DNA of 64,000 nucleotides from assembly GCA_030068145.1 (NCBI GenBank), contig JAPJBO010000158.1, positions 181,818-245,817 of the forward strand, written 5' to 3'. A program made the position numbers and the translations under genes. The notes under the pieces are model-generated. The model saw only the letters and a list, made by a program, of their open reading frames with translations. It was not told the DNA's origin and did no database searches. This DNA is from Diplonema papillatum (Eukaryota). Positions 6,901 through 42,544 of this stretch are shown one piece after another (the first letter of the stretch is position 1; the number at the start of each line of letters is the position of its first letter).

Positions 6901-7514
6901 TTGCATCGGTCGGGGGACAAGGCGTTTCTCGGGCTTTGGCGAAGATTGAAGCGATGCTGAGTGATCAGGCCGCAACCAGGGATGCCGTCGCTGCTGTGCA
7001 AGAAAAGCTGGGCTCTTTCGTGCAAGGTAAAGGAGAAGCAGCTTACGACGAGCAAGCACAGGGTGAGCCTGGGGATTCAACAGACCACGTCGATACCACG
7101 GATGCCGGTGATCCTGCTGCGCAGCAGAGAGATCCAACTAACCACGTCGATGCTGCTGTGCACCTTGAGGCTCACGACAAGCAAACACAGGGTGAACCTG
7201 GTGATCCAAAGGATCACGCCAATACCACGGATGCCGGTGCTCCTGCTGCGCAGGAGGAGGATTCAACTAACCACGTCGATGCTGTGCACCTTGAGGCCCA
7301 CGACGAGCAACCCCAGGATGAACCTGGTGATCCAAAGTATGGTGCCAATACCACGGACGTCCTTCCTACTGTACAACATGCTCTGGGCGAGTCCAGAAAT
7401 TCAACGGACCACGTCGATACCATAGATGTCGTTGCTCCTGCTGCGGAGCAGGGGAATCCACCGAAGCACGTCGATGCTGCTGGGCACCTTGAGGCTCACG
7501 ACGAGACAGGGTGA
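3948..7514 (+). CDS. Ala-rich repetitive protein of unknown function, with nested in-frame tandem repeats
   Basis: 1188-aa ORF. Internal ~100-aa units (LLEPVRDTLRQARELASVGGQGVSRALAKxEAMLSDQAATRDAVAAVQEKLGSF...) are repeated about 2.5 times. A GFPAAAEAVRNGISRVE unit occurs twice. A C-terminal acidic unit (QGEPGD.TDHVDTTDAGDPAAQ) occurs about four times. The antisense ORF 4538..6163 is a low-complexity S/A/R/P artefact. Confidence 0.5.
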   Translation: MKTCCCGCIRTACSRVAHFEPQTDNNYVRPVVFPCKFALPQNPPLLNPFARTFPKTRTATAKGVATAVIADVTKARWGTGSGVLLGFVLRHVKVADIARKLAVQADAATEAGAARVKTLQALCSSSSLADFKRRAQAAADELRDQQFQEAVDEACTANFDPKDVRAALLEALQPRTSPDQRQPGPANTDEAQPEAQVQPTRVSSSATAGGQEESDEEREVGRLVREVERAAAGLLDSALVKRVLSVVRDAVEQEAGEATPQQQLRRVAAAAARAAGAEAKQAAAHPLADGRDAWLAAALSGPARRAAAKGEAADVLAGARSAFPDAESAPAAVLAFRESLEVFIRDDDGNADDADNPQSADDSRAALVARAKVARQEDGVPSELASGIERLERLLGSSSDGGGGGGGFVPLAARALLARVDGMAAQGGRAGRAAAALRRDLAALVSGAGGGDAARSVARGLAEFPEEGLPAPFRVLRSWVGDPTQLDGFPAAAEAVRNGISRVEAGAARARQTLAGEGDGDPAARFDQFLDGASEAHLIRALRGWAEDRAHGGFPAAAEAVRNGISRVEEGAAAARRALAGGDDGFDQFSQAHFARVRTALRSIQDELSTADSELTGLPPWVQGRLASLQRSPAAESLPAGVRAALSQARGAAAAEGGRVADGVSRALAQVDALESLTRGGDGASAEAARALLPESVQAGLRRVGQPGEQGAAPIVDWLHELLDGVNATAAAARREVDNALAADGSDAARRHLAAAAAGSLDRFQTDGALPGPVLDALRRARDLVSSAGGQGAARAMAKAEAQLLGGERGAVGNAVAAVQKELRAFAEGTDTLGSEALGKARAHLRSLVGPDERSSETVVQKLAALEEDGGLLEPVRDTLRQARELASVGGQGVSRALAKVEAMLSDQAATRDAVAAVQEKLGSFAEGTDTLGSEALGKARAHLRSFAGSDDLSPETVVQKLAALEEDGALLEPVRDTLRQARELASVGGQGVSRALAKIEAMLSDQAATRDAVAAVQEKLGSFVQGKGEAAYDEQAQGEPGDSTDHVDTTDAGDPAAQQRDPTNHVDAAVHLEAHDKQTQGEPGDPKDHANTTDAGAPAAQEEDSTNHVDAVHLEAHDEQPQDEPGDPKYGANTTDVLPTVQHALGESRNSTDHVDTIDVVAPAAEQGNPPKHVDAAGHLEAHDETG
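6240..7510 (+). repeat. in-frame tandem repeats inside the Ala-rich gene (~300-bp units 6240-7020; ~120-bp acidic units 7060-7510)
   Basis: Near-identical DNA blocks: 6400-6700 vs 6700-7000, and 7060-7180 vs 7190-7310 vs 7320-7500. Confidence 0.7.
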
Positions 7515-11572: not shown

Positions 11573-11939
11573 AAAGGTCGCCCTTAGCAATCGTCGCAGA
11601 GGTGGGTGACGTTAGGGGTCCGTCCACCGATTGTCTGTCCGAACTTTTCGAAAACATCGAAAAAACACAGGGGAAACATGTCAGTAGAAGCGGGCGAGAA
11701 TGGCGGCGGCGGCGGCGGCAGCGGCGGCGGCGGCGGCATCGGCGACCACCTCATCAAGAGCGCCGCTTCGGCGAAGAAGACGAAGGAGAAGGACGGCGAC
11801 GCGGTGGCGTACGCCGCGTTGAAGCACAACGTCACCGGCACCGTCGGAACCTTCGGCTACGTGACCAACCACCCGGGCGTGCCGCCTCAGAAGAGACGGG
11901 CGAACCAGCGAAAGACGGCGGAAGACGACGAAGCGAGAG

Positions 11940-12965
11940 CCGCGAAACCGTTCCTGCCTTGCGCCCGGTACAGAGGCAAGGGCGAAGACTGGACGCAGGT
12001 CCCGCCGGTCACCCGCGGGCTCGACCTCGCGGCCCGGAGGCACGCTGCCTCCGCGGATGCCCAGCGGTTCGAGCACTCGTGTTCGAAGGATCCGTGCCAC
12101 CCGCTCAACAACCCATCGCACCAACTTCTCGACGCGTCCTCCCGGCGGTCTGTCGTCGGCATGCTGCTGTCCGGCCAGCCCGTGGCGGAGACGGGATCGA
12201 CCCGAAGCACTCGCATTCCGCGCTCGTCCCCTGCTTCGGCGAACGACATGAAGTCGGTGCTGGCGTGCAGCGCGAAGCCGTGGCTCGCCGACCACAAGCC
12301 CCTGTTCACGAACACCCTTCGGAGCAGGGCCCGCTGGAACGGACGGTCGCAACTGGATTGATCCATTGCGCCTCCCTTCCAGCTGGCGCTCATGTACGCG
12401 CGTAGGCACCTATCCAGACAAGGGCCCCTGCCTGACAGTCTTGCCAGCTATTCTTTGTCTTCACGGCGGTCTGTTGTGGGACTACCTTCGGCTACGCGGC
12501 CAACCACCCGGGCGCGCCGCCGCAAGAGACGGGCGAACCAGCGAAAGACGGCGGAAGACGACTAAGCGAGAGCCGCGAAACCGTTCCTGCCTTGCGCCCG
12601 GTACAGAGGCAAGGGCGAAGACTGGACGCAGGTCCCGCGGGCTCGACCTCGCGGCCCGGAGGCACGCTGCCTCCGCGGATGCCCAGCGGTTCGAGCACTC
12701 GTGTTCGAAGGATCCGTGCCACCCGCTCAACAACCCGTCGCACCAACTTCTCGACGCGTCCTCCCGGCGGTCTGTCGTCGGCATGCTGCTGTCCGTGGCG
12801 GAGACGGGATCGACCCGAAGCACTCGCATTCCGCGCCCGTCCCCTGCTTCGGCGAACGACATGAAGTCGGTGTTGGCGTGCAGCGCGAAGCCGTGGCTCG
12901 CCGACCACAAGCCCCTGTTCACGAACACGCTGCGCAGGGCCCGCTGGAGCGGACGGTCGCAACTG
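11940..12965 (+). repeat. tandem segmental duplication (~425-bp unit at 11940-12365 and 12540-12965; third partial copy 13080-13170)
   Basis: ORFs 11606..12361 and 12366..12971 end in near-identical 140-aa tails. The DNA blocks are near-identical with small indels. Confidence 0.75.
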
Positions 12966-13479
12966 GATTGATCCAGAGCCTCGCCTCCAGCTCGATTTCA
13001 CGCTTGCGCTATGTATGCGTGCACCCAGCCAGGCACCCAGGCAAGGGATATTTTCCGGCTGTCAGACCAGCCATTCTTCACAGCGGTCTGTCGTGGGCAT
13101 GCTGCTGTCCGGCTAGCCCGTTGCGGAGACGGGATCGACCCGAAGTACTCGCATTCCGCGCTCGGCTCCTCCGATAGCAGTGCAGGTCAAGATTGTGCAC
13201 TGAGCAAGACACGCAACCAATTTGAATGACGCCGATCAGTTTGCACCACATGTTCATTTGCCGCTCCCGATATTGTCATCGTCCGACTGACCGAAGAGAA
13301 AATATCGCGTGTTGTGTCTTCTCTCCCCTAGCTGAATCCTCCGTCGTATGTTTTGTTGTATACCCTTCTTGCTTGTTGATTCTTACACGTTGCTCATCTC
13401 GATTTCTGTTCCCCCTCATTGCCTCAGTGCCGCCCCCCGAACCGTTGGAGCAAAAACCGTAGATGTTGCAATACACGGT

Positions 13480-13660
13480 GGACCGGTCATGGTCATGACC
13501 GCATGTTTGACCGGTCAGTTTTTGACCGGTCATCTGAGAAAGTTATGCGGTCATTGACCGCATACCTTGCGGTCAATGACCGCACCCTTGCGGTCATTGA
13601 CCGCACCCTTGCCGCACCCTTGCGGTCAATGACCGCAAGGTTGCGGTCATTGAACGTATC
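13480..13660. repeat. left subterminal array of the palindromic 17-mer (t)gcggtca(a/t)tgaccgca (about 8 copies)
   Basis: Read directly: accggtcatggtcatgaccgc, gcggtcattgaccgca, gcggtcaatgaccgca and similar. Confidence 0.8.
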
Positions 13661-15385
13661 CTGTGGTAAGCCACAAGGATTCCTGCCTTTTTGGGTTGAA
13701 AATCACCCGGTCTCGGTCTCTCTCTTTTCTGGTAAACGTGCTTCTGCGTTTCGGGGGTCAGAAACGCTGGTTGGAGAAAAGGTATGTTGGGTGTCACATA
13801 CAGGGCTTTTTGGTGGGATTTCTGAGGTCACAATCACACGGTGTGCTCCAGCACCGGGTGAACTGTGCAGTCCATTTTGCGGGTGTCACACCTGCACCTG
13901 TGTAAAGTTTAGATGGCTTCGAAGTTGTAGACGTTGGAGTGCCGCGGTCTTGACCAGGACTCGCCTGGCCGCTCGCGCTCCGATCTGTGCCAAGCAGTCA
14001 GGGCGCGAGCGGAGGCACCAAATTTATGGCCTCATACGTCAAGAACCTTGTGCGCCCTGGACGCCCGCATACTCGAGGTTCTAAGCAGCGCCAGAAACTC
14101 GCCCAGAATCTGGGGAGCAGCGCCGTGGTCATGGACGGCATCGAAGATCGTCCTGAACTCCTTCACGCCCGGCGGCTTCGCCCGCCGTGGGTCCGGCGAC
14201 TCCTCCTGAGGACAGCCATCATCCTACTCACGCTCTTTCATTGAGCGGGTCGTCGAGGACACACGCCGCCGCTTTGTTCTCCGCCAGCACGGACGCCATG
14301 ATGTTTAGGGGCACCCCATAGGCCCATTGTCGCCCATCAGCAACAGGCGACCACCGCCACCGTAGGGCCCGACGCCCATGCCTCGACACTTGGGCCTGTT
14401 GTCCGTGGCTCTCGGAGCAGGGAGCCCCGGGGCTGGTCGGTGCCCGGGGCTCAGCCCCGGAGCGCTCCAGGAGCCCGACAGGGACGGGCATAGAACACAC
14501 TTTCTACTGTTTTCCAGGTAGATCCGTTCCCAGCCGCGAGCGAGGCGACTCCTCGACTCGTCTGTGGGAGAGCGGCAGAAGAGGATAAAGGCCTCCCAGA
14601 GCTTGTATTTCCCAGCACCTTTCTTTCTTGTCCTGCTCATCCGCACCCAGTTCACTTTGGTCGTCAACGCAAACCCATCAACGCTCTCGTCCTCCGAATC
14701 TTCATCGACGGGTGAAGATCAGAGCCAAAGGGGACAGCTTTATCGGTCTCAGGGGTGAACACCGACGACCCCCTGCAGATGGCGCAGTACATGGCGCAGC
14801 TTGGGCGGCGGCCATCACTCAGCTGCCACCCGGACGGTGTTAACGAGTTTTCAGATTTTTCTGGACTCGGTGCCGTCGCCGCCGAAGAACCTGGCAGACC
14901 AGATCACTGCCTGGGGAGCTTGGCCGACGGCCGCCGCCCAGGCTTTGATGTGGCAAGGGGCGGTGCGGACTCGTTGCCGCTCCTCTGTCCGCATCGTGCT
15001 GCGGCACCTCGATGGGATCTCGGGCCCGAACCTCCTGCTTTTCCCGGGCCACGAGTACCAACAACTGCTCGGGACCTGAAGTCCTATTTCTTCCAATTCC
15101 CAGTAGGACGGCCGACGCCCGGGAGCCCAACGGGCTACGAGATGAGGCCAATTTTCCGCGGCGGCGAGGAGACGATGGGGGTCTTTGAGACGCAGCTGAA
15201 GGCGAGGCGTGGGGGATGGACCTTTTCCCGACGTACAGAAGAGAGAGGGCGGAGCGTGCAGCGAGATGGACGGCCTTCGACGACACCACGGAGAAGAAGA
15301 AGGGCAAGAAGTCGGCCGTTGTCGGAGGAGACCCGTGGCTCGTACCGGAAGGGATTTCCCGACACGAAAAGTGGGGTGAGCGGAA

Positions 15386-15830
15386 ATGTGTGCCGAGCAC
15401 CGGATGACGCAGTGCACCACATGTAAGACGACAACGGAATGCTGTCGCAACCATCACCACCGATGTCTCGACCATGAGATGCCGACGTGCGACAGCTGCA
15501 AGAAACACGCCGACCTGAGGAGTAGGAGACGCGGGCACTGCTGCAGGAAAGGGCACCACCGGGCGGCCGTGGCGAGAGGAGAAGAATCAACGACGAAGAA
15601 GAGGAAAGCGGAGCCGGAGGGCCCCGCGTCAGCGCCGAGACAGGCGAAGCGTGAGAGCGTGGTGCTCGTTCTGCCGGAAGCAGCGGAAGGCGAGCGAGGA
15701 CCCGCAACATCGACATCGACTTCAGCAGCGAAGGTCGGGAAGACGGCGCTTTCTTCGGGCTTCGGACCAGGAGACCCGACGGGGGCGTGGCTCTGTATTG
15801 GTGGCGCCTGGGCAGGTCGTTTTCTATGAT
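15386..15830 (+). pseudogene. fragment related to the Cys/His-rich plus Lys-rich C-terminal tail of the LINE at 37.5-40.4 kb
   Basis: CCRNHHH...CCRKGHH here matches ACCRHHHA...CCKKGHH in the LINE ORF. DNA ctgctgcaggaaagggcaccaccg matches ctgctgcaaaaagggccaccacg. Confidence 0.4.
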
Positions 15831-15837
15831 TGCGCAG

Positions 15838-16205
15838 GACTCTGATTTTGTTATCACGGAGGTTGCCGGGGACGACAGGATAGTCTGGTACGACGACTGG
15901 GCCCTCGTCGTTGCCTGTCCGGGCGCGCTTCGCGCTGTGCGCAACCGGGTCCTGCAGCGTGCCCGCATGATGGTCAAGGACGAGTAGTCTGTCCTCGAGC
16001 AAGGACGAGAAGTCTGTCCTCGAGCCCAGCTCGACGCCGGTTGTCCTGGGAGTCGAGTTCGACTTCGCAGCGAAGAGGTACCGGCTGAAGCAAGGGTGGG
16101 TGCAGAAGCCGCACCTCCTCTTTTGCTCGGTCGATTTGACGCAAATGACTCTGCGCGGCGTCTGGAAGTCGTCGAGACCGCAATTTGAGCGTGGATGGTA
16201 TGGGG
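15838..16205 (+). pseudogene. frameshifted fragment of an LTR/DIRS-type reverse transcriptase (motif C-D-E region)
   Basis: ...FVITEVAGDDRIVWYDDWALVV...LRAVRNRVLQRARMMVKDE / KSVLEPSSTPVVLGVEFDFAAKRYRLKQ fits the YxDD...L..L...G..N.KS.L.P....LG..D pattern. The two reading frames are joined across a short tandem duplication (gacgagtagtctgtcctcgagc x2). Confidence 0.3.
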
Positions 16206-17449
16206 CACACTGCACTGCAGGGTGAGCCCAGTGCTTGCGGATGGTGACCCGAGTCGCTAGTCCGCGTGAGGGACGATATCGTTTCGTTCCTGCGGGGGTG
16301 AGCCGGCGTCTATCGGACAACCGGTGGGTCGGCTTCGACTCGAAGCTGCACCCTCGTGGAGGCGTGGTCCGATGCCGTTTTGTTGTCGGCTCCGACGCAG
16401 AGTTCGTCCGCTTCTTCGCTCGCGTCAGTGCCGTCTTCTTCACCCTCACCGCTGGCTTTAATGTTGATGTTGCGGGTCTCTGATGTTGCTTGTCTTCTGC
16501 TGCTTCAGGTAGCATTCCGGGTGTGCTCTTTGTCGCTTTGACGATACGTGGCGAGCAACGTTTTTCCCTCATGTGGAAACCGAGTCAGTAATCGGTTCCC
16601 TCAATCCGCTGACCATGATTGGCGCTCATGCTCGATTCGATTGTATTTACGGTGAGGCAGTTTCTCACTGGCGTTGTGGTGGATGGAAGGTGACCTCGCC
16701 CAAGCTCGTTTCCCGGGTTAAGGCAGTCACTCAGCATTCCCTTGCGCTAGTCAGTTACAAATACGTGTTCTTACTTTTCCCTTTCTTCTGGGCAGTTCTC
16801 GTCAGACAATACGAAGAGCAGAAATTCCATGGCGATGTGGGCCCCGTAGAGATGTCCCGCAGCACATCTTCTTTGCCGAGCTGACGACGGCAAAGTTTGC
16901 GACTCCGCTGTCGACAAGTAGAATCTTTGTCGACAACTTGCCTTTGTTTGTGCGCTCGCAGCCTTTGTTCGCACTTTCTCTCGTTGAAGAGATATTGTGC
17001 TATTTGCAAAGGCTGCCTTCCTGTTGAAATCATCTGTTCTCATAGTAGTGGACGCCACACTAATTTTTGTGTACGCCGGTACACAACTGTTTGCGAGACT
17101 GGAGGCACTCGTTGCATCGAAGAGTTTGCAAAGGTCGACAGTCAACCTTGGGTTTTACATCGTCTGTTACGATGGAAAGGTGCGTGGCGTCCCGTGTCTT
17201 TCTTCGCACGGGCTCACCGTCGCATCGTTTGAGAGAGCTACACCACCAGGCTCGTTGCCAATCAAAAAACTGTCAGCTGCCCTGAAAGTGTCTCACTCCT
17301 CTGCGAGGTCGGTTTGAGACGCTTTCACGGGTAAAAACGGTGAGCCACTTACACGGGGGGGGGTACGTATAGTTGTAAGTGCGTACTTCGAGAATTAGGC
17401 CTTGCGTGGGTACACTTTGCTGCCTATTTTACCTTGCAAACTTTCATAA

Positions 17450-17590
17450 GTACCGGTTATTGACCGCAATGTTGCGGTCAATGACCGCATGGGTGCGGTC
17501 AATGACCAGTACCCTACCGGTCAATGACCGCAAGGTACCGGTCAACATTATTGCGGTCAGCGTGGTTGCGGTCATTGACCGCACCAGCCC
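17450..17590. repeat. right subterminal array of the palindromic GGTCAATGACC motif
   Basis: gcggtcaatgaccgca, accggtcaatgaccgca, gcggtcattgaccgca read directly. Confidence 0.8.
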
Positions 17591-17614
17591 TTGACCGGTC
17601 CACCGTGTGCAGGA

Positions 17615-19204
17615 GGGGGGGGGGGGGGGGGGTTTGGGCGGAAAAATCCCCGCATAGTTCACCAGGGTCTGACGGGTACTGAGGCCCCATACCCTTCCTA
17701 AAACATCATTCTGCGTTCAAATACGCCCTCAGAAGCCTCCGGAGAGCCTTCTATGATGTCCCAAATGCGATTTTGTGGGTTTTTAGGGGGTCCCCCCGTC
17801 TGCTGGCCGTAAACCGCCATAGAAGACACATATGCAACCTGATGCTGGGTCGCTCCTCGGAGCAAAATCTCGGCCTAAACACACGTTTTCGGCGTTCTCT
17901 ATCATTCTCCAGGTGCATTCGACCCTCGGACTTCATAAATTATCTCGCTTACAGGTGTTCCGGGGTGTGCAAAAACAAGGCGAATGGACCCTACAGACCG
18001 TACCACGCCCTGCCTGTCTATACAGGCTTTGGGGTCGAATTGCGCCGCCTTGGCGCCATGTGCACCGTTTTGGTCTCGTTTGTGCTGCTTTGGGATCCAC
18101 TAAGAACTCTGGTCTGATTTGCGGGACGCTTTGCTCGGTTTTGGTGCCCACTTTCACCGTTCAAAGTGCATCCAGTGGTGAAGACTTTGCGCCGAAGCTG
18201 GAGAGGAAGCGACCCAGTAGGCGCCACTTCACCGTGAGCGGGTCTCGGAACAGGACTCAAACTGTGGCCCAGGTGATACTGCCGACCATGGCGGGTGTGT
18301 GCGCCACACAGTTTGTCTGACCAAGCTCACTGCACAGGAGCTTGCCACACATCCCTCGGGTCATGTGCCGCCTGTGCAAAGACATCCAGCGAGAAGCACT
18401 TTGCAGCCATGGGTGAGAAAGATGCCAGAAGGGAAGACATTGCCAGGAAAGCTCTGAAAGCCTGCCCTGAAAGCGGTGAAGCCTGCTTCAAAATCATGAA
18501 GTGAACGCGTCGTAGTCAACCGCTTGAGAACGGCTGATGATCGCCTGTTACTTAACGCTTGTCCTACTTCGTTCACCAAGCCTTGCAGAATCACCAGAAT
18601 AGCATAACATGATGCAGGTAGAAGCCTGAACAGGCCTTAGAACAGTGAAAGTGGGCGCCAAAACCGAGGAAAGCGTCCCGCAAATCAGACCAGAGTTCTT
18701 AATGGACCCCAAAGCAGCACAAACGAAGCCCGAAACGGTGGATGTGGCGCCAAAGCCGGTGCAATTTGACCCCAAAGCCTGTATAGACAGGCAGGGCGTA
18801 GTTCGGTCTGTCCCCAATGCAGGGGGCCATTCTCCTTATCTTTGCACGTCCCGGAACACCTGTGAGTGAAAGAAACCACGAAGCCCGAGGGTCGAATGCA
18901 CCTGGAGAGTGCTAGAGAACGCCGAAAACGTGTGTTTGGGCTGGGATCTTGCACAGAGAAGCGACCCAGCTTCAGGTTGCATATGTGTCTACTATGGCGG
19001 TTTACGGCCAACAGGCGGGGGGACCCCCTAAAAACCCACAAAATCGCATTTGGGACATCATAGAAGGCTCTCCGGAGGTTTCTGAGGGCGTGTTTGAACG
19101 CAGAATGATGTTTTAGGAAGGCTATGGGGCCTCAGTACCCGTCAGACCCTGGTGAACTATGCGGGGATTTTTCCGCCCAACCCCCCCCCCCCCCCCCCCC
19201 CCTT
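17615..19204. repeat. large palindrome: G24 run, ~525-bp arm, ~480-bp unique spacer, inverted arm, C24 run
   Basis: 17637-18160 is the reverse complement of 18640-19180. The arm ends are near-identical and the interior is diverged. ORFs 17773..18117(+) and 18685..19041(-) encode the same peptide, which is an artefact of the symmetry. Poly-G 17615-17636 and poly-C 19180-19204 cap the structure. Confidence 0.85.
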
Positions 19205-23110: not shown

Positions 23111-23450
23111 TTAGCTAAAAGCCACTCGCTGCGTGACTGAGCCCAGTAAAATGGGCGTTTCGCTGTAAGCCAGCGACGCGCTACACGCAAATCAAGCACG
23201 AACCGGCCGAAACTTCACTTCCGAGTGCCGAAGCGTGCTGAAGCAACTCCGCCGATTCTTAAGATCCAACATCGATCAAGAAGTACAGCAGGACCTGGTC
23301 CATGCTAGAGAGCACGCGAGACCTCCCTGGCCCCGCAACACCGGCACACCTACTTTTCGGGCTTCCGCCCAAGTCGAACACAATTCAGGCCCAGGCCCAG
23401 GGGGGCGGACTCGCGCGGGGGCGAGGAGAGGGGAAGAAGGGCGGGGGGGG

Positions 23451-33195: not shown

Positions 33196-35135
33196 GAAAA
33201 CATCCAGTCACACGGGAAAGAGGTGCTCTATATACGCCTTGTACATGTGTGTGTGCACGGGACGAGGTGCCTCATACATGTGTGTGCACGGGAAAGAGGT
33301 GCTCCATTTAACGCCTTGTACATGTGTGTGGTGCCTCGTACATGTGTGGGCACGGGAAAGAGGTGCTCCATTTAACGCCTTGTACATGTGTGTGTCACGG
33401 GAAGAGGTGCCTCATACATGTGCGTGCACGGGAAAGGTGCTCCATTTCCGCCTCGTACATGTGTGTGTGCACGGGACGAGATGCCTCATACATGTGTGTG
33501 CACGGGAAAGAGCTCCATTTAACGCCTTGTACATGTGTGTGGTGCCTCGTACATGTGTGTGCACGGGAAAGAGGTGCTCCACTTAACGCCTTGTACATGT
33601 GTGTGTGCACGGGACGAGGTGCCTCATACATGTGTGTGCACGGGAAAGGTGCTCCATTTCCGCCTCGTACATGTGTGTGTGCACGGGACGAGATGCCTCA
33701 TACATGTGTGTGCACGGGACGAGGTGCCTCATACATGTGTGTGCACGGGACGAGGTGCCTCATACATGTGTGTGCACGGGACGAGGTGCCTCATACATGT
33801 GTGTGCACGGGAAAGAGGTGCTCCATTTAACGCCTTGTACATGTGTGTGCACGGGAAGAGTTGCCTCATACATGTGTGTGCACGGGACGAGGTGCCTCAT
33901 ACATGTGTGTGCACGGGACGAGATGCCTCATACATGTGTGTGCACGGGACGAGGTGCCTCATACATGTGTGTGCACGGGAAAGAGGTGCTCCATTTAACG
34001 CCTTGTACATGTGTGTGCACGGGAAGAGGTGCCTCATACATGTGTGTGCACGGGAAAGGTGCTCCATTTCCGCCTCGTACATGTGTGTGTGCACGGGACG
34101 AGATGCCTCATACATGTGTGTGCACGGGACGAGGTGCCTCATACATGTGTGTGCACGGGACGAGGTGCCTCATACATGTGTGTGCACGGGAAAGAGGTGC
34201 TCCATTTAACGCCTTGTACATGTGTGTGCACGGGAAGAGTTGCCTCATACATGTGTGTGCACGGGACGAGGTGCCTCATACATGTGTGTGCACGGGACGA
34301 GATGCCTCATACATGTGTGTGCACGGGACGAGGTGCCTCATACATGTGTGTGCACGGGAAAGAGGTGCTCCATTTAACGCCTTGTACATGTGTGTGCACG
34401 GGACGAGATGCCTCATACATGTGTGTGCACGGGACGAGGTGCCTCATACATGTGTGTGCACGGGACGAGGTGCCTCATACATGTGTGTGCACGGGAAAGA
34501 GGTGCTCCATTTAACGCCTTGTACATGTGTGTGTGTGTGTGTGCACGGGACGAGGTGCCTCATACATATGTGTGCACGGGAAAGAGCTCCATTTAACGCC
34601 TTGTACATGTGTGTGTGTGTGCACGGGACGAGGTGCCTCATACATGTGTGTGCACGGGACGAGGTGCCTCATACATGTGTGTGCACGGGAAAGAGGTGCT
34701 CCATTTAGCGCCTTGTACATGTGTGTGTGTGTGTGCACGGGACGAGGTGCCTCATACATGTGTGTGCACGGGAAAGAGGTGCTCCATTTAACGCCTTGTA
34801 CATGTGTGTGCACGGGACGAGATGCCTCATACATGTGTGTGCACGGGACGAGGTGCCTCATACATGTGTGTGCACGGGACGAGGTGCCTCATACATGTGT
34901 GTGCACGGGAAAGAGGTGCTCCATTTAACGCCTTGTACATGTGTGTGTGTGTGTGTGCACGGGACGAGGTGCCTCATACATATGTGTGCACGGGAAAGAG
35001 CTCCATTTAACGCCTTGTACATGTGTGTGGTTCCTCGTACATGTGTGTGCACGGGAAAGAGGTGCTCCATTTAACGCCTTGTACATGTGTGTGTCACGGG
35101 AAGAGGTGCCTCATATATATATGTGCGTGCATAGT
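33196..35135. repeat. minisatellite: 31-bp unit (gggacgaggtgcctcatacatgtgtgtgcac) and 46-bp variant (gggaaagaggtgctccatttaacgccttgtacatgtgtgtgcac), about 50 copies
   Basis: Read directly. It begins about 55 bp after the MVP stop codon. The Cys/His-rich ORFs across it (33599..34708 and others) are repeat artefacts. Confidence 0.9.
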
Positions 35136-37299: not shown

Positions 37300-40200
37300 A
37301 AGCGAAGTTGCACTCTAGCAACCAGTCTCAATACTGCACCACCAAACCCTTGTCTAGAACCGAGTTTCATTTCTACGGACCTTAAGAAATGGGGAGATGA
37401 GACCGTGAGTACCCCAAATACGACACAGGGTAAAAACCAGGGACGCCGATTAACTGGCACATCTTGCTGCTGGGCCAGACCAGACGAGTTCTGAAACCGC
37501 TGAAGTCCATCTACGACACCCTCGTCAGGCGGTTCAAGCTCCCCCTCGGGGTCGGAAAGGAGTTTCAGGTGACGAACGGCATTCTGCAAGGGTGCCCTAT
37601 CTCGGTCATCCTGATCAACGCGCTGCTGTCAGTGTTGATGAAGGCGGTAAAAGTCGAGGCACCAGGCGTGTCGACGCAGTCGTACGCAGACGATGCGAAT
37701 TTGTTGGCGAAGCACTCCGAGGCAGATCTGCAACGGGGCGCGGACTTAGTCGATGAGTTCTGCGCGCTGACCGGCATGTCGCTGAACATGGAGAAGACGG
37801 TAACGTTCGCGACGGGGCTGGGCCGTAGGACGAAGATCTTCCGCAGCAGCACGGGCGAGCAGTTCGCACAGAAGGAATCGCTGAAGTGCCTGGGGGCTAA
37901 GGTGAGCACCTCACGCAGCGGCCGCGACCACTTTGACTCTTCCCGGTTTGAAGCAGCAGCAACCACAGCTCGGAACCTACGGCACGTCCCAATTCCGAGG
38001 CAGCAGAAAACCCTCATCGTTCAATCAGCCATCCTGCCCGCCGCTCTCGCGAGAATATCGTTCGCGCCCCCTACGACTGAAGCCGTGGAGAAGCTGGCGA
38101 CAGCGTTAACGAGAGCGATCTGGGGGCCGAAGAATCCGAAGCGCTCCTCGGAAGTAGTCTTGGGAGTCCTCGAAAAAGCCCACTTGACGCACCCTGCGAC
38201 GGCGACGGCGTACCGAATAACCGCGGATTTCTACAGCGCCTGTGGGAGACTGCCGCACCTGATGCCGCTGATGACGGAAGTCCGGCGCCTATACGGCGAA
38301 CGAGTGACCGCAGCCCTTGGCCCGGTGGGAACCGCGGTAAGGCACGGCCTGCAACCCTGCGGCCACACGTGGAACGGCGGCCCGCCGTCGTCCGTCAACC
38401 TGGACGGAGCTGCACTCCGACCCCTGGCAATGTCCGCCTCCTCGCGAAATCACATCATCCGCGACAACCTGCGGAACCGACTGTGGAAGCGGTTGGAAAC
38501 ACGACGGCCAAGCTTCTCCGGCATCACCAACATCGCGATCGAGTCCACCAACGCTCTATGGACAACGCGCCACTGTCCGCCCCAGAACGCGCTGCTGATC
38601 AGGGTTGCCCTCGCAGGTGGCGTGAACACCGCCGAATACACGTCGAGATTTCGCCAAGGCGGAAGCCCCGCCTGTACGTTGTGTGGCTCGGGAGCATTGG
38701 AAGACGAGCACCACGTCTACTGGGATTGCACGGCCTTCGAGAACATACGCACGAAGCCCGAGTACGCGGGGATCGCACAGTCCGACAGGAGGCTCTGGCC
38801 GAGCTGCCTGCGGGAGCACGGAATCGTGACGCCGGCGACACGGGAATTTGCCGGGCCGGTACAAGCGCTGATGGCAGAGATCCTGGCGGAGCGGGCGCGC
38901 CGGATCAGCGTTAGATGGCTAGAACGTAAGGCGGCGACCCCCTGGGAGCGCTGCGCGCAGATGCCAACGGCGAAACGCGAGTTCCCGTTCCGGCGCATCG
39001 CCCCGGCCTGGGCGTGGCTACGCTACTGGGACGAAGGGACATTCCTGGCAGCGATCGACTGGCTCTCGGGCCTCGAATGGTCATCGGATGGCGACATGGC
39101 AGCGGTAGAGGCAGCTATCGACTTCGAGCTGTTCTCGGGCCTCGACATCAAGGCACCTAGCAAGGCGGCCAAGACGCATCGGGAGAAGGCCAACGGGATG
39201 CGCTGCATGTTGAGCGCAATCAACAAGCTGGCCGTGCAACAACAACTCGGCAAGTGCCTCCCTGGCGACTTCAAGTCGAAAACTACAGCCTTGTCGTTCA
39301 TAGGCCTGAGCAGCGTACCCGGCTTCCAGCCCCGGCCCCGCCACCGCATGCCCGAAACCGGGCCGACCATCATGCAGCAGGTGAAAACCGGCTACGGCAC
39401 AGCGCCGGCGTACCCGCCCGAGCGGACGGACAGAGCGCGGCGATGGGTAATCCCCAGAGCGCCACTGGCCAACCCGGATCCCCTGCACCTCCCACACGCA
39501 GTGCCGGAGGCGACGAAGAATGCCCCCAAGTGCGCTACCCATCACAAAGGGAAGTGCGCAGTCTGTCGCGCACTCGGACACCACCACGGCCCTACGGTGG
39601 AGGCATGTTGCCGACACCACCACGCCGACAACGACGGCTTACCTCCGGCCGTCTGCGACCGGCACCGCATGACGAGATGCGTGGAGTGCAACACGCCAAC
39701 AGCGTGCTGCAAGGCCGGCCACCATGACTGCCGCGAACACGCCCGCGGTCCGTGTGACGACTGCCGCGGCTTACCGACGCTAGCGGAACGGCGGCCGTCA
39801 GCCTGCTGCAAAAAGGGCCACCACGTGCCAGCGCCCCCGAAGCCAGCCCCCGCTAAGCCGAAGCCAACAACGCCGCGGAAGAAGGGCCGACAGAAGCCGA
39901 CGACACCACCGCGCATGAAGAGGACGCGTCAAGCGTCCCCAAAGGCGGCCAAGATGGCGAAAAAGCACGCTCCGACCGAGCCGGCCCGAGCGACACCACC
40001 AAGGAAGGGGCAGAAAAGAGCCCGACTCCCGACACCACCGAATGACCCGGCGGGAAAACCCGGAAAAAAGCACGCGGCGCGAAAGCGCAACATTTCGAGA
40101 ATGGAGCTGGATATCACCAGCCCTGCCACCTCGACTTCATCCTCATCCATGTCAGGATCGCCCCCTCGAGCGACTGCTTCGGCAGGACAGCCGGCGCGAA

Positions 40201-40365
40201 AGCGCAACAAACGAAGAATGGAGCTGGATATCACCAGCCTATTATCACCGTCCTCGTCCGCTTTGAGATCGTCCTCGGACGACGTATTCAAATAACCCTA
40301 GCCTATGACAAATGCAAGCTTACCCCTGTGGTACCTGCATTTCAAGTTCACACTGCTCAACATGC
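37300..40365 (+). mobile_element. 5'-truncated non-LTR retrotransposon (LINE): partial RT, zinc-knuckle, long Cys/His- and Lys/Pro-rich C-terminal tail; no poly-A
   Basis: ORF 37464..40295 carries RT motifs FQVTNGILQGCPISVIL and SYADDANLL but lacks the upstream RT motifs and any endonuclease. The 3' end is set by comparison with the fragment at 32048-32232. Confidence 0.8.
37464..40295 (+). CDS. LINE ORF2-like polyprotein remnant (reverse transcriptase C-terminal part + CxxC...HHxxxxC zinc knuckle + basic tail)
   Basis: YADD box; CTLCGSGALEDEHHVYWDC. The tail contains a tandemly duplicated RKRN..RMELDITS unit. Confidence 0.75.
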   Translation: MLLGQTRRVLKPLKSIYDTLVRRFKLPLGVGKEFQVTNGILQGCPISVILINALLSVLMKAVKVEAPGVSTQSYADDANLLAKHSEADLQRGADLVDEFCALTGMSLNMEKTVTFATGLGRRTKIFRSSTGEQFAQKESLKCLGAKVSTSRSGRDHFDSSRFEAAATTARNLRHVPIPRQQKTLIVQSAILPAALARISFAPPTTEAVEKLATALTRAIWGPKNPKRSSEVVLGVLEKAHLTHPATATAYRITADFYSACGRLPHLMPLMTEVRRLYGERVTAALGPVGTAVRHGLQPCGHTWNGGPPSSVNLDGAALRPLAMSASSRNHIIRDNLRNRLWKRLETRRPSFSGITNIAIESTNALWTTRHCPPQNALLIRVALAGGVNTAEYTSRFRQGGSPACTLCGSGALEDEHHVYWDCTAFENIRTKPEYAGIAQSDRRLWPSCLREHGIVTPATREFAGPVQALMAEILAERARRISVRWLERKAATPWERCAQMPTAKREFPFRRIAPAWAWLRYWDEGTFLAAIDWLSGLEWSSDGDMAAVEAAIDFELFSGLDIKAPSKAAKTHREKANGMRCMLSAINKLAVQQQLGKCLPGDFKSKTTALSFIGLSSVPGFQPRPRHRMPETGPTIMQQVKTGYGTAPAYPPERTDRARRWVIPRAPLANPDPLHLPHAVPEATKNAPKCATHHKGKCAVCRALGHHHGPTVEACCRHHHADNDGLPPAVCDRHRMTRCVECNTPTACCKAGHHDCREHARGPCDDCRGLPTLAERRPSACCKKGHHVPAPPKPAPAKPKPTTPRKKGRQKPTTPPRMKRTRQASPKAAKMAKKHAPTEPARATPPRKGQKRARLPTPPNDPAGKPGKKHAARKRNISRMELDITSPATSTSSSSMSGSPPRATASAGQPARKRNKRRMELDITSLLSPSSSALRSSSDDVFK

Positions 40366-40775
40366 ATGCGCGTGGGGGGCCCAAGACTAAATTCAAAGCG
40401 AATTTCTTCTTCGTGTCGGTCGCAACACTTACAAACATGGCTAGCCGTAGTTAAAGTGTATAAGCATACCTACTACCCGCATACCACCCGCCTCACAGCC
40501 TCAATGGTCAACCGGAGACCCTAAACACCGAACCTCTAAACCACAATAAACGCTAAAAGATCACTGACAAACGATCCTTGGGGGGTATCTGCCGTTTCGA
40601 GTAACCGAACGCGGAAGTACAGCTAGCTAGTATTGTTCGCAACCTCTCCTTTCCCTCCATTTTTCCAACAAACACACGTCCTCCCGCTCCCGGCTTGGCA
40701 AAAAGAAGAACAGCAACAGCAAATAATACAAAAAAGGAAACGTCCAGCGGCCCGAACTCTTCTTCTTTTTAATTT

Positions 40776-40795
40776 GTGTGTGTGTGTGTGTGTGT

Positions 40796-40832
<37 letters not shown>
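40776..40832. repeat. (GT)n microsatellite
   Basis: read directly. Confidence 0.95.
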
Positions 40833-40833
<1 letters not shown>

Positions 40834-41175
40834 AATCCCTTTCTTTCCGTTTCTGGTCTTTCGAGCTTCTGGACCGCTTGTGGCATGGATTGCAGTGGGT
40901 GAACTCAGGACTAAAAGGCAGGAAAAGGATAAAGCACCGTTATGGGAAGCGGCCGGCCGGCAATACAAGGAGAAGAGGGCCGCGTGGGCGGCACACGGGT
41001 AAGGGGGAAGGGGGAGTACAAACAGCGGAGAGGGAAACAGCCTGGATGTTTGCGTTATACTACCCCTGTCCAACCTCTTAAAGAGTGGAACTAGGAGGCA
41101 TCGCGTACGTCAAATGGTGGAAACGGAAAACGGGATTCCACTAGACGCGCCTTCGGCGCTCAAGCAAGCTTGCTA

Positions 41176-41216
<41 letters not shown>
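41176..41216. repeat. (TG)n microsatellite
   Basis: read directly. Confidence 0.95.
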
Positions 41217-41218
<2 letters not shown>

Positions 41219-41644
41219 GAAGTTCTTCTTGACCTAAGGGTATAACCCACGGGCCACTTTCACAAGTCGGATTTGAGCTTCCGACACGCTGCTTTTGAAT
41301 CCTGTGACAGTCTGACTCCTCTCCGAAAGGGTGGATCCTTCGGGGGACGAGGTTGTCAGCTTCTCCATCCGGCACTTGGCTGAAGACTTCTGTTTTCATC
41401 TTGCGCTCTTGCTGTTCGGCCCCGTGCCACAGCTGAATGTCTTTACAAAGGCGGACCATCTTCCGAAGATGTGGCAAGCTCACTCAGTGCAATGAGCTTG
41501 GGCTGACTAACTGAACTCCTCCGGGTGCAAGCACCCGTCATAGTCGGCGCGTCAGGCTCACACTTCTAAGTCAAGTTCTTGTCCAGGCGTCCGAGAAAAT
41601 AGGGCATCACATTCCCAGCGAAGTGCAATGCTAACCCTTGAGTA

Positions 41645-41693
41645 TGTGTGTGTGTGTGTGTGTGCGTGTGTGTGTGTGTGTGTGTGTATGTGT
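41645..41693. repeat. (GT)n microsatellite
   Basis: read directly. Confidence 0.95.
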
Positions 41694-42544
41694 GTGGGAG
41701 GGGCGTCTGTTTTCATTGCTTCGACATCGTTCGACTACTTGGGCTCTTGTCGCCGCCGCGGGGCTTGCGCGTATCTTTTTGTTTCATCCTCTCTTGCGAA
41801 CACATGTTTTGGCGGGGTTTGGCTGCGGCGGCGCATGCGCATCATGTGTCCTTATGCAAACTCGGAACAGAAATCGTTGCTCGATACCCGATCCTCGCCT
41901 ACGAACGCATGGGCGACAGAGAAATGGCCGCAAGCCCGTTGCTTTTGGACCCTCTGATGTCGGCTCGTCCTGGCCTAGACGAGCAGAATTGTCTAAGGGC
42001 TGGTTCAACACCCTAACGTGAGCTGGGTGTAGACCATCAACCGTAGTTTAGCCCCCCTCAACCCATTTTGATCTTATCCCTCAAACCCAGCACCAATAAC
42101 AACGACGTCAGACACCACTTCAGTGCCGTCAGGCTTTAGCGAAAGTTTTTCGAGTGGGGCCCACCGTGGGAAGATCATTTTCTCGCAGCTTGTGCAGTTT
42201 GGATGAGGGGTTGTGGGTTCGGATCCTTGTCTTTTTTAGACGACAGTTTTCCTACACGTCGTCAATTCTTCCACATTCCAGTGTGTGACGAAACTGAACC
42301 GCCCGAGTTGGACCTCCGATCATGATCCAAATTCCACCTGCAACCACGAATTTACAGTGTCAGTGCAAACGACTAATCGGGTCCTGGCCGAATCCAACCC
42401 AGAGCTGACCGGATCTGGGGAGTTCTATATACTGCTCAGCCCATCATACTCTCCAGGAGGAAACATACAAGTCGAAAACGTATGGCGCTTTCTTTATTTG
42501 ACGTGGGCGGCTTTAGATTTACATCTGAATGACACCTCAATACA

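Follow-up and report, generated by a model that had tools for sequence, protein, structure and literature searches.

A putatively mobile repeat with palindrome-array ends in Diplonema papillatum, most likely a non-autonomous DNA transposon

Several described systems resemble the locus reported here in the way their ends or coding parts are built. Plant elements of the En/Spm (CACTA) and Ac/Ds types have a short CA(C) tip and many copies of a short, asymmetric motif of 6–12 nt in both orientations within 150–300 bp of their ends, and their non-autonomous copies lack a transposase. In Drosophila Foldback (FB) and Mutator-like long-TIR elements, including those of Pack-MULE type, the terminal inverted repeats (TIRs) consist of short tandem subrepeats and the ends fold back, while FB/Pack-MULE-type carriers have an interior of unrelated captured sequence. 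Among retroelements, DIRS1-type elements, VIPER and TATE have an RT/RNase H of the DIRS order and no target-site duplication, with inverted terminal repeats in DIRS1-type members and split direct repeats in VIPER and TATE (PMC12278014). Transib/RAG-like elements carry CAC at tip positions 1–3, and the Transib criteria further include a 5-bp target-site duplication and a spacer of 12 or 23 bp followed by an A-rich nonamer (PMC1131882). Finally, bacterial integrative elements can bear phased operator or arm-type arrays.

The 4.1-kb unit described here (positions 13473–17608; Table 1) lies in the window, i.e., the whole 64-kb stretch of Diplonema papillatum DNA that was analysed, and joins long, motif-rich inverted ends to broken retroelement genes inside. 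It is surrounded by a 15-kb repeat-rich intergenic gap with tandem repeats on its left. Most likely, this repeat unit is a non-autonomous DNA transposon with putative mobility, an ordinary kind of element so far undescribed in this protist group. Like En/Spm and Ac/Ds elements and their transposase-free copies it has a short CA(C) tip and motif-crowded ends, but its tip reads CACGG instead of CACTA, its motif is a perfect palindrome of 15–17 nt, and it shows neither a 3-bp or 8-bp target-site duplication nor a linked transposase. With FB and Mutator-like elements it shares subrepeat-built TIRs, fold-back ends and an unrelated interior, and MULE-type transposase ORFs exist in its genome (PMC10161547, Table S17), though it lacks a 9-bp duplication and falls far short of FB arms in the length of its ends. 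Its RT/RNase H of the DIRS order, inverted ends and missing duplication recall DIRS1-type elements, from which it differs in having no tyrosine recombinase, gag or recognisable internal complementary region; the split direct repeats of VIPER and TATE have no counterpart in it. Its heptamer CACGGTG resembles the CACAATG and CACAGTG of Transib/RAG-like elements, but neither the nonamer nor the 5-bp duplication accompanies it. A bacterial locus (L001, see below) has the same palindrome, TGCGGTCATTGACCGCA, at a period of 21–24 nt and, unlike the unit, has a single array without inverted tips.

Table 1. Coordinates of the unit, its parts and the palindrome beside it.
Position	Strand	Feature	Basis or remark
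13473–13489	+	Left terminal inverted repeat tip, ACACGGTGGACCGGTCA	Exact match, one of 2 in window
13490–13533		Left proximal motif block: GGTCATGACC without spacer at 13491–13500; two TGACCGGTCA sites at 13508–13517 and 13523–13532	Sequence, motif scan
13545–13660		Left array, five GCGGTCAWTGACCGC palindromes; centre-to-centre 22, 21, 32, 21 nt	Four perfect 17-mers
13661–14730		Left interior segment, without recognisable coding remnant	No Pfam match, no protein homologue, no gag/tyrosine-recombinase remnant
14731–15123	+	Reverse transcriptase (RT), N-terminal part, degenerate, frameshifted; ends with motif A (DLKSYFFQFPVGR, 15073–15117)	tblastn, Diplonema papillatum RT proteins
15126–15748	+	LINE C-terminal Cys/His fragment inside RT gene	tblastx to window LINE ORF 39651–39953; tblastn with P0002, P0034
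15733–16376	+	RT continuation including motif C (VWYDDWALV)	tblastn, 53–74% identity to P0006, P0012, P0015
16369–16515	-	Second LINE-tail piece, inverted orientation	tblastn with P0002 residues 226–271
16823–16943	+	RNase H fragment (…DVPQHIFFAELTTAKFATPLSTSRIFVDNLP…), C-terminal part absent	tblastn, 71% identity over 42 aa to P0006, P0043
16944–17450		Right interior segment	No Pfam match, no protein homologue
17451–17585		Right array, five palindromes; centre-to-centre 21, 21, 22, 51 nt	Two perfect 17-mers
17592–17608	-	Right terminal inverted repeat tip, exact reverse complement of left tip	Exact match
17611–19203		Adjacent 1.6-kb palindrome, arms ~555 bp, 89% identical; loop ~470 bp; outer G22/C22 runs	Neighbour of unit

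The original prediction, made from the sequence, had described short perfect tips, subterminal motif arrays and an interior without transposase, and we recovered all three; such anatomy is typical of class II elements. At both predicted positions the 17-nt tips are identical at 17 of 17 nt, and these are the only two occurrences of ACACGGTGGACCGGTCA in the window, where further copies are absent even at up to 3 mismatches (0.21 expected). If one mismatch is allowed, the inverted repeat of the tips reaches 20 nt. The tips form a perfect CAC…GTG pair, with CAC at the start and GTG at the finish (the left start reads A-CACGGTG), and the CAC-type left tip includes GGACCGGTCA at 13480–13489, an imperfect copy of TGACCGGTCA. 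At ~170–190 bp, the full TIRs are longer than these 17 nt, perfect at the tips and degenerate overall: the left end and the reverse complement of the right end are identical at 135 of 221 columns (~61%), and their motifs follow in the same order. Motif numbers and spacers differ between the two ends, which are far from identical outside tips and motifs; being collinear yet diverged, they follow the pattern usual for class II ends and not that of freshly copied LTR-like repeats. As single-stranded DNA, each end folds on itself (z = -13 for the left and -8.8 for the right).

When up to 2 mismatches are allowed, the palindrome GCGGTCAWTGACCGC is found 10 times, with five copies at 13547–13657 and another five at 17453–17582, and it is absent elsewhere in the window at the same threshold (0.17 expected; 0 of 100 shuffles reach 10). 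Six of the 10 copies, four on the left and two on the right, are the perfect 17-mer TGCGGTCAWTGACCGCA, and partial sites occur in the right array at 17535–17560. Tandem Repeats Finder reports a 21-nt period on both sides. Each end carries 5–7 palindromic sites built from the half-site GGTCA and mostly 21–22 nt, or about two helical turns, apart, and the spacings of 21, 22, 32 and 51 nt approximate multiples of 10.5. The half-site also occurs in another arrangement, TGACCGGTCA, within the TIR tips and at two more places in the left end. Arrays of 140–180 bp had been expected inside the termini, close to the ~171 bp (13490–13660) and 135 bp (17451–17585) that we measured on the left and right. 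The suggested likeness to an estrogen-response element holds for the half-sites but not for the spacer, which is 1 nt here and not 3; nuclear receptors are not known outside animals.

Inside the unit, a truncated RT/RNase H from a DIRS-order (tyrosine-recombinase) retroelement is interrupted by a Cys/His fragment from the C-terminal end of a LINE, and a Pfam search of the unit confirmed that no transposase is recognisable and found no integrase or tyrosine-recombinase domain either. What had been called a LINE-tail-like fragment has its homologue in the C-terminal portion of a LINE ORF located at a different place in the window (33% over 101 aa). Within the fragment lie the annotated 63-aa gene DIPPA_05168 (15216–15407) and a 147-aa Cys/His ORF (15386–15829), and P0020 is identical to the window ORF in it. 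The inverted LINE piece pairs as an inverted repeat with 15671–15750 (repeat search, blastn), and a 25-nt tandem duplication at 15975–16024 frameshifts the RT continuation. The predicted RT fragment of LTR/DIRS type falls into an RT/RNase H family whose relatives adjoin or are fused to a tyrosine recombinase: L003 has the order gag, Phage_integrase, RT, and P0067 of Diplonema papillatum fuses gag, tyrosine recombinase, RT and RNase H. When the gag and tyrosine-recombinase sequences of these two served as tblastn queries, no match appeared in the window. Another relative, the environmental L002, ends in 250-bp direct repeats without inverted repeats. Since the retroelement part of the unit is cut off at both ends, it has no termini of its own.

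This interior mosaic is multi-copy. Both of its junctions recur in Diplonema papillatum gene models at at least nine other loci, junction 1 in 3 proteins and junction 2 in 7 distinct proteins covering 9 accessions, so the mosaic had a single origin and was multiplied afterwards. A multi-copy interior is in keeping with a non-autonomous repeat. The evidence consists of annotated proteins that span 14779–15826 at ~90–97% amino-acid identity and does not include the ends; protein searches gave no copies of the remaining interior ORFs.

That TIRs plus subterminal arrays are the hallmark of DNA transposons of the CACTA, Mutator, hAT or foldback kind stands as far as class II anatomy is concerned (17/17-nt tips, ends collinear over ~170–190 bp), but no superfamily's features were found in full. 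No target-site duplication of 2–12 bp is present next to the tips (all lengths scanned with ±3 nt slack); the nearest candidates are TGCA, offset by 2–3 nt, and, with CACGG as the tip, TA on one side and TG on the other. CACTA/CMC elements need a CACTA(A/G) tip and a 2- to 4-bp duplication, whereas the unit has CACGG between flanks ATA and TGC, and its subterminal repeats are a typical but not a defining trait of that group. For Transib, CAC is present, but neither end has an A-rich nonamer and the 5-bp flanks CAATA and TGCAG differ. The hAT tip rule (T/C)A(A/G)NG (G at position 3: PMC1131882, legend to Figure S7) is contradicted by C at position 3, and the flanking 8-mers, GTTGCAAT and GCAGGAGG, mismatch, so that the 8-bp duplication of hAT elements is missing too. 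Long degenerate TIRs (>100 bp) as in Mutator and Foldback are seen, and the ends of the unit show no 9-bp duplication; a match at 6 of 9 positions arises only if the adjacent palindrome is counted in. Assignment to Tc1/mariner/pogo, whose target-site duplication is TA, with the tip as CACGG between TA on the left and TG on the right, would need one substitution and has nothing else in its favour. Of the DIRS order, the unit has the RT/RNase H lineage; gag and tyrosine-recombinase genes gave no match by tblastn or Pfam. Its inverted terminal repeats come with neither an internal copy of the terminal sequence, as in the DIRS1 type, nor split direct repeats, as in the Ngaro, VIPER and TATE type, though a degenerate copy could have lost its internal region.

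We give roughly even odds, a probability of about 0.5, to the unit being a non-autonomous class II (cut-and-paste type) element that carries retroelement debris, or a recent relic of one. This reading is supported by tips and ten palindromes that are confined to the two ends far above chance, by CAC…GTG tips, by spacings near multiples of 10.5, and by a transposase-free unit whose retroelement part lacks termini. Class II enzymes exist in Diplonema papillatum, as 46 ORFs with a MULE transposase domain and one Tc5-type ORF are listed for its genome (PMC10161547, Supplementary Table S17). From the sequence we infer protein binding to the palindromes, mobilisation via the ends and the class of the enzyme: a dimeric DNA-binding protein supplied in trans, either the transposase or an accessory factor, would bind the phased palindromes cooperatively, pair the two ends and cut at the CAC…GTG tips, and the interior would be cargo or accumulated debris. 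Against a class II element speak the missing duplication of 2–12 bp, which a copy diverged by a few percent should still show, the restriction of the multi-copy evidence to a part of the interior that excludes the ends, the lack of an autonomous partner linked to the ends, an empty protein search with the translated ends, and an interior RT of the DIRS order, which can have inverted terminal repeats and no target-site duplication.

Unlikely, but to be reckoned with, is that the 4.1 kb never moved as a unit, being instead a short foldback or MITE-like repeat, with tip and palindrome array on each arm, that was split by later insertion of retroelement debris, or two solo copies opposed by chance, with an interior that spreads independently. 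The strong self-complementarity of each end would suit such a history, as would the repeat-rich gap with its tandem repeats and a large palindrome abutting the unit, and copies are evident for 14779–15826 and neither for the ends nor for the other interior ORFs. (This palindrome was said to start 7 bp past the right TIR; it does adjoin, at a distance of 3–7 nt depending on how the G run is counted.) However, tip and motif occur nowhere in 64 kb but at these ends, which are correctly inverted and facing, the retroelement fragment lacks termini that would account for its insertion, and the arrays are set apart from the debris by unassigned sequence, ~1.1 kb of it on the left side and 0.5 kb on the right.

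Also unlikely is an internally deleted, non-autonomous retroelement of the DIRS order, whose own inverted terminal repeats would be the 170- to 190-bp ends and which would rely on intact relatives for the enzymes that copy it through RNA and on a tyrosine recombinase for insertion without target-site duplication. The gene orders of L003 and P0067, an RT in a single orientation between the ends, the multi-copy interior and a missing duplication, as in VIPER and TATE (PMC12278014), all agree with it. Against it, the terminal sequence does not occur a third time at up to 3 mismatches, which leaves no recognisable DIRS1-type internal complementary region, and there is no gag or tyrosine-recombinase remnant; moreover, the RT lacks both of its ends and is interspersed with fragments of LINE origin, including one in inverted orientation, the euglenozoan relatives VIPER and TATE bear split direct and not inverted repeats (PMC12278014), and L002 has direct repeats as well.

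It is improbable that the arrays are protein-binding structures outside transposition, serving replication, segregation or a boundary or derived from the sites of a bacterial integrative element, with inverted tips as a by-product of inverted duplication. Such an origin is suggested by L001 (Myxococcaceae MAG JBBAQZ010000059.1), in which four copies of the identical palindrome, spaced by 24, 21 and 24 nt, adjoin an HTH_17 gene, the surrounding island also encoding a tyrosine integrase, and by a metagenome contig with two copies at a 22-nt period; the genome paper reports that Diplonema papillatum acquired bacterial genes (PMC10161547). Yet L001 and the unit have no sequence similarity beyond the palindrome, searches of plasmid and phage collections and of viral contigs gave nothing similar, and a 15-nt palindrome has just 7 free positions, so that chance may account for a match or two across the whole range of bacterial repeat arrays. 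The sharing of the array with the myxobacterial island may therefore be coincidence, and inverted tips plus arrays at both ends are what a mobile element requires.

By analogy with the myxobacterial array, which lies beside an integrase and an excisionase-like gene, and because of the DIRS-order debris and the missing target-site duplication, the unit might conceivably, with a slim chance, be an undescribed diplonemid kind of TIR-bounded element that makes no such duplication and depends on a tyrosine recombinase for its movement, the phased palindrome arrays being accessory ("arm-type") binding sites as in bacterial integrative elements; this recombinase could be among the abundant DIRS-order recombinases of the genome. 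An assembly artefact such as a chimeric inverted join is very improbable: the unit does abut a large palindrome that carries homopolymer G/C runs, and the genome authors warn of possible artificial duplication or collapse in repeat regions (PMC10161547, section 8), but the ends are ~61% identical over 221 aligned columns and have different motif numbers and spacers, the asymmetric interior is unlike a mirrored read, and the palindrome arms are 89% and not 100% identical.

Repeats make up more than half of the genome of Diplonema papillatum, and the genome authors state that the definition of elements by their non-coding ends is still to be done (PMC10161547); no transposable element of this species has so far been defined in that way. 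In the sister group, Trypanosomatidae, only retrotransposons and no DNA transposons have been reported (PMC12278014). The palindrome of the unit is a ready-made probe for a protein that would bind it. If confirmed, a TIR element with a clear putative binding-site architecture would offer a first entry point to class II mobility among diplonemids. It would also be relevant to the shuffling and multiplication of retroelement fragments in these protists and to the proposed seeding, by inverted-repeat elements, of the base-paired non-canonical introns found in other diplonemids (PMC12621601).

The 4.1-kb unit is a real and well-formed structure bounded by inverted repeats, and we assign a probability of about one half to its being a non-autonomous DNA transposon (class II) mobilized in trans, its mobility being putative. 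The 17-nt inverted tips and the palindrome arrays inside them stand as originally predicted, since both were re-found by pattern search. Only 2 copies of the tip 17-mer are present in the 64 kb at ≤3 mismatches (0.21 expected), and the palindrome GCGGTCAWTGACCGC gave 10 matches at ≤2 mismatches (0.17 expected), 5 at 13547-13657 and 5 at 17453-17582, with none outside the 2 ends anywhere in the 64-kb window. These chance estimates derive from pattern-specific shuffles and not from second-order Markov simulations, which produced 17-nt inverted repeats in 32 of 100 runs, we assume from simulated low-complexity runs. Six of the palindrome copies are perfect 17-mers, the array period is 21 nt on the left and on the right, and variants with “A” or “T” at the center are opposite-strand readings of one site.

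The underlying GGTCA/TGACC half-site occurs in 3 arrangements at the ends: with a 1-nt spacer as the main palindrome, without spacer in the left end, and as an everted pair (TGACCGGTCA) that is imperfect in both tips and has 2 further occurrences in the left end. The 2 ends contain 16 and 12 half-sites versus 8 in the 3.8-kb interior, at a window mean of 2.1 per kb; the suggested likeness to an estrogen response element is superficial, and we dismiss it. Aligned globally, the left end and the reverse-complemented right end agree at 135 of 221 columns and keep their motif order, so that the ends can be described as long degenerate inverted repeats of about 170 to 190 bp with perfect tips, while the spacers outside tips and motifs differ between left and right. 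Center-to-center spacings (21, 22, 32, and 51 nt) approximate whole helical turns, so that most sites would share one helix face. Single-stranded self-folding of the ends is far above that of shuffles (z = -13 and -8.8). Peptides derived from both ends in 6 frames (e.g., AVNDR, RSMTA, or TRWTG) had no protein match at E ≤ 10.

Searching 596 Gb of prokaryotic genomes for the exact double palindrome returned a single match, a locus in a Myxococcaceae MAG (JBBAQZ010000059.1; 5450-5533 and 5830-5920) with 4 copies of GCGGTCATTGACCGC spaced by 24, 21, and 24 nt. This array overlaps the 3′ end of a small HTH_17 gene, and ACTGGATCACTGATCCAGT-like palindromes form another array directly upstream of the same gene; the island in question also encodes a tyrosine integrase. 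A looser pattern also found a tandem GGGCAGGGCGGTCAATGACCGG pair, its period being 22 nt, in an intergenic region of bacterial appearance on a metagenome contig (Ga0114129_10534436, 606-640), and plasmids, phages, and viral contigs yielded nothing resembling the palindrome arrays. The unit and the myxobacterial locus share no similarity beyond the palindrome, and we therefore rejected homology as unproven. A single identical bacterial array may be coincidence because the 15-nt palindrome has 7 free positions and bacterial operator arrays are many. We use the match to illustrate by analogy how arrays of this type could work, i.e., by cooperative binding of a dimeric protein, and not as evidence of common descent.

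Features of the unit and its surroundings (window positions)
Feature	Position	Strand	Remarks
Tandem duplication, left flank	11849-12992		~635 bp, 92% identity; further partial copy 13075-13170
Left tip, ACACGGTGGACCGGTCA	13473-13489	+	exact match
Half-site pair without spacer, GGTCATGACC	13491-13500		left end
RT N-terminal part	14731-15123	+	motif A at its end; Diplonema protein mapping
Cys/His-rich fragment	15126-15748	+	Diplonema protein mapping
RT continuation	15733-16376	+	frame shifted by 25-nt tandem duplication 15975-16024
Cys/His-protein tail, second piece	16369-16515	-	inverted; Diplonema protein mapping
RNase H fragment	16823-16943	+	matches P0006 (Diplonema papillatum RT/RNase H relative) by tblastn
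Right tip	17592-17608	-	exact reverse complement of ACACGGTGGACCGGTCA
Palindrome, 1.6 kb	17611-19203		3 nt past right tip; arms ~555 bp, 89% identical; loop ~470 bp
LINE-type ORF	37434-40292	+	953 aa; RVT_1 + zf-RVT

The interior was mapped by aligning Diplonema proteins back onto the unit. All proteins matching it are from Diplonema papillatum, and one of them, the annotated 63-aa DIPPA_05168, is identical to the ORF at 15216-15407. What emerges is a truncated RT/RNase H interrupted by a Cys/His fragment whose homologue is the C-terminal part of the window’s LINE ORF, just as its LINE-tail-like appearance had suggested. The first third of the RT and the C-terminal part of RNase H are absent or unrecognizable. 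The second RT half is flanked by 2 overlapping portions of the same LINE tail that face in opposite directions (15671-15750, + strand; 16427-16512, - strand), which suggests an inversion or template switch during mosaic formation. The segments outside the mosaic (1.07 kb left, 0.5 kb right) gave no match in protein or Pfam searches. Pfam scans of the interior and of neighboring ORFs found no transposase, integrase, or recombinase, in agreement with the claim of a transposase-less interior. The remaining interior ORFs, concatenated into a 2673-aa query, had no match at E ≤ 0.001 among the candidates considered, though sensitivity may have suffered from so long and chimeric a query and from the limit on candidates; the RNase H fragment, for instance, was missed although it matches P0006 by tblastn.

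The mosaic itself is not unique to this locus. Its first junction, from RT motif A into the LINE tail (…FPVGR|PTPGSPTGYEMRPIF…), recurs in 3 other Diplonema papillatum proteins, and the second, from the LINE tail back into the RT in another frame (…KVGKTA|LSSGFGPGDPTGAW…), in 7 distinct proteins (9 accessions). Because the junctions recur in proteins that match 14779-15826 at 90% to 97% amino-acid identity over the best-aligned part, we conclude that the mosaic had a single origin and was copied about 10 times, recently. The multiple copies of this interior mosaic, the short perfect CAC…GTG tips, the collinear but differing motif-packed subterminal regions, and an interior of unrelated debris together form the architecture that a class II element mobilized in trans would need, and this is the explanation we prefer. 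In its logic the unit resembles En/Spm and Ac, and its long ends composed of subrepeats recall Foldback or MULE elements.

The class II reading keeps the tips, arrays, and transposase-less interior of the original prediction, but the unit agrees in full with no superfamily tested, mainly because a target-site duplication is missing and the tip is non-canonical. No duplication of 2 to 12 bp adjoins the tips. None of the candidates is convincing: flanking TA (left) and TG (right) if the tip is taken as CACGG, a TGCA on both sides that is offset by 2 to 3 nt at the left, and a 6/9 match when the neighboring palindrome is counted in. This palindrome, which ends outwardly in G22/C22 homopolymer runs and contains an ORF (17823-18317) without Pfam match, may have disturbed the unit’s original right flank. 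The CACGGTG tip had brought up Transib, which was ruled out against its consensus (PMC1131882) for want of a nonamer and a 5-bp duplication. Insertion of the unit within the left-flank tandem repeat was likewise ruled out since the repeat is not continued in the right flank; the repeat resembles the “repeat-bounded gene structures” published for this genome.

A short foldback repeat that was split or doubled is a doubtful alternative, favored by the reach of the multi-copy evidence, which leaves the outer 1.3 kb on the left and 1.8 kb on the right uncovered. Rather improbable, in our view, is a non-autonomous DIRS-type retroelement, which would account for the RT, the inverted ends, and the absent target-site duplication. 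The RT fragment, originally called LTR/DIRS-type, does belong to the DIRS order, because its relatives carry a tyrosine recombinase. An exhaustive search for P0006 homologues found them in other diplonemids, kinetoplastid relatives, and environmental contigs, one of which (Logan ERR4592244, 3953 bp) encodes gag-like, Phage_integrase, and RT ORFs in this order. The same DIRS-order parts are fused in a single ORF in a 1238-aa Diplonema papillatum protein annotated “Gag-Pro-Pol” (P0067), where a tyrosine-recombinase-like stretch (…GHSLRRG…SRHST…VRYL; motif read by eye) precedes RT/RNase H. However, the window shows no detectable remains of gag or recombinase, and a tip search at ≤3 mismatches found no internal complementary region. 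Moreover, euglenozoan relatives carry split direct repeats (PMC12278014), and a different contig, from a distant relative, ends in direct repeats. Neither the ends of the unit as a whole nor the arms of the neighboring palindrome mirror each other exactly, which makes an assembly artefact unlikely.

The long ORFs on either side of the unit end at 7511 and start at 23169, leaving it in a gap of some 15 kb that is rich in repeats. All host genes of the window lie on the + strand, among them major vault protein, a GH63 glucosidase, and a flavin monooxygenase. This setting agrees with the published description of Diplonema papillatum genes as clusters with long repetitive stretches between them (PMC10161547); the supplement of that paper contains neither the palindrome motif nor the tip sequence or the gene identifiers. 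Elsewhere in the window, we observed a 1.9-kb satellite (33211-35126; 31-nt unit TACATGTGTGTGCACGGGACGAGGTGCCTCA, higher-order periods of 137 to 220 nt), 3 (TG)n microsatellites at 40775-41696, and 2 isolated 28S rRNA fragments (Rfam LSU_rRNA_eukarya; 47437-47652, + strand, 190 bits; 50744-50951, - strand, 105 bits) that match the about 3600 scattered 28S pieces published for this genome. One of these fragments is enclosed by a second inverted repeat (46244-46275/49359-49390; 18-nt perfect core CTCGGTTCATCCCGCGTC, arms 3.1 kb apart) with a G23 run just inside its right arm (49312-49334) and without subterminal motif arrays.

Elements of the kind to which the class II reading assigns the unit are already known in principle, and they had not previously been defined in this lineage. 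The oligonucleotide TGCGGTCAATGACCGCA is a possible probe for the putative protein that would bind the palindromes.
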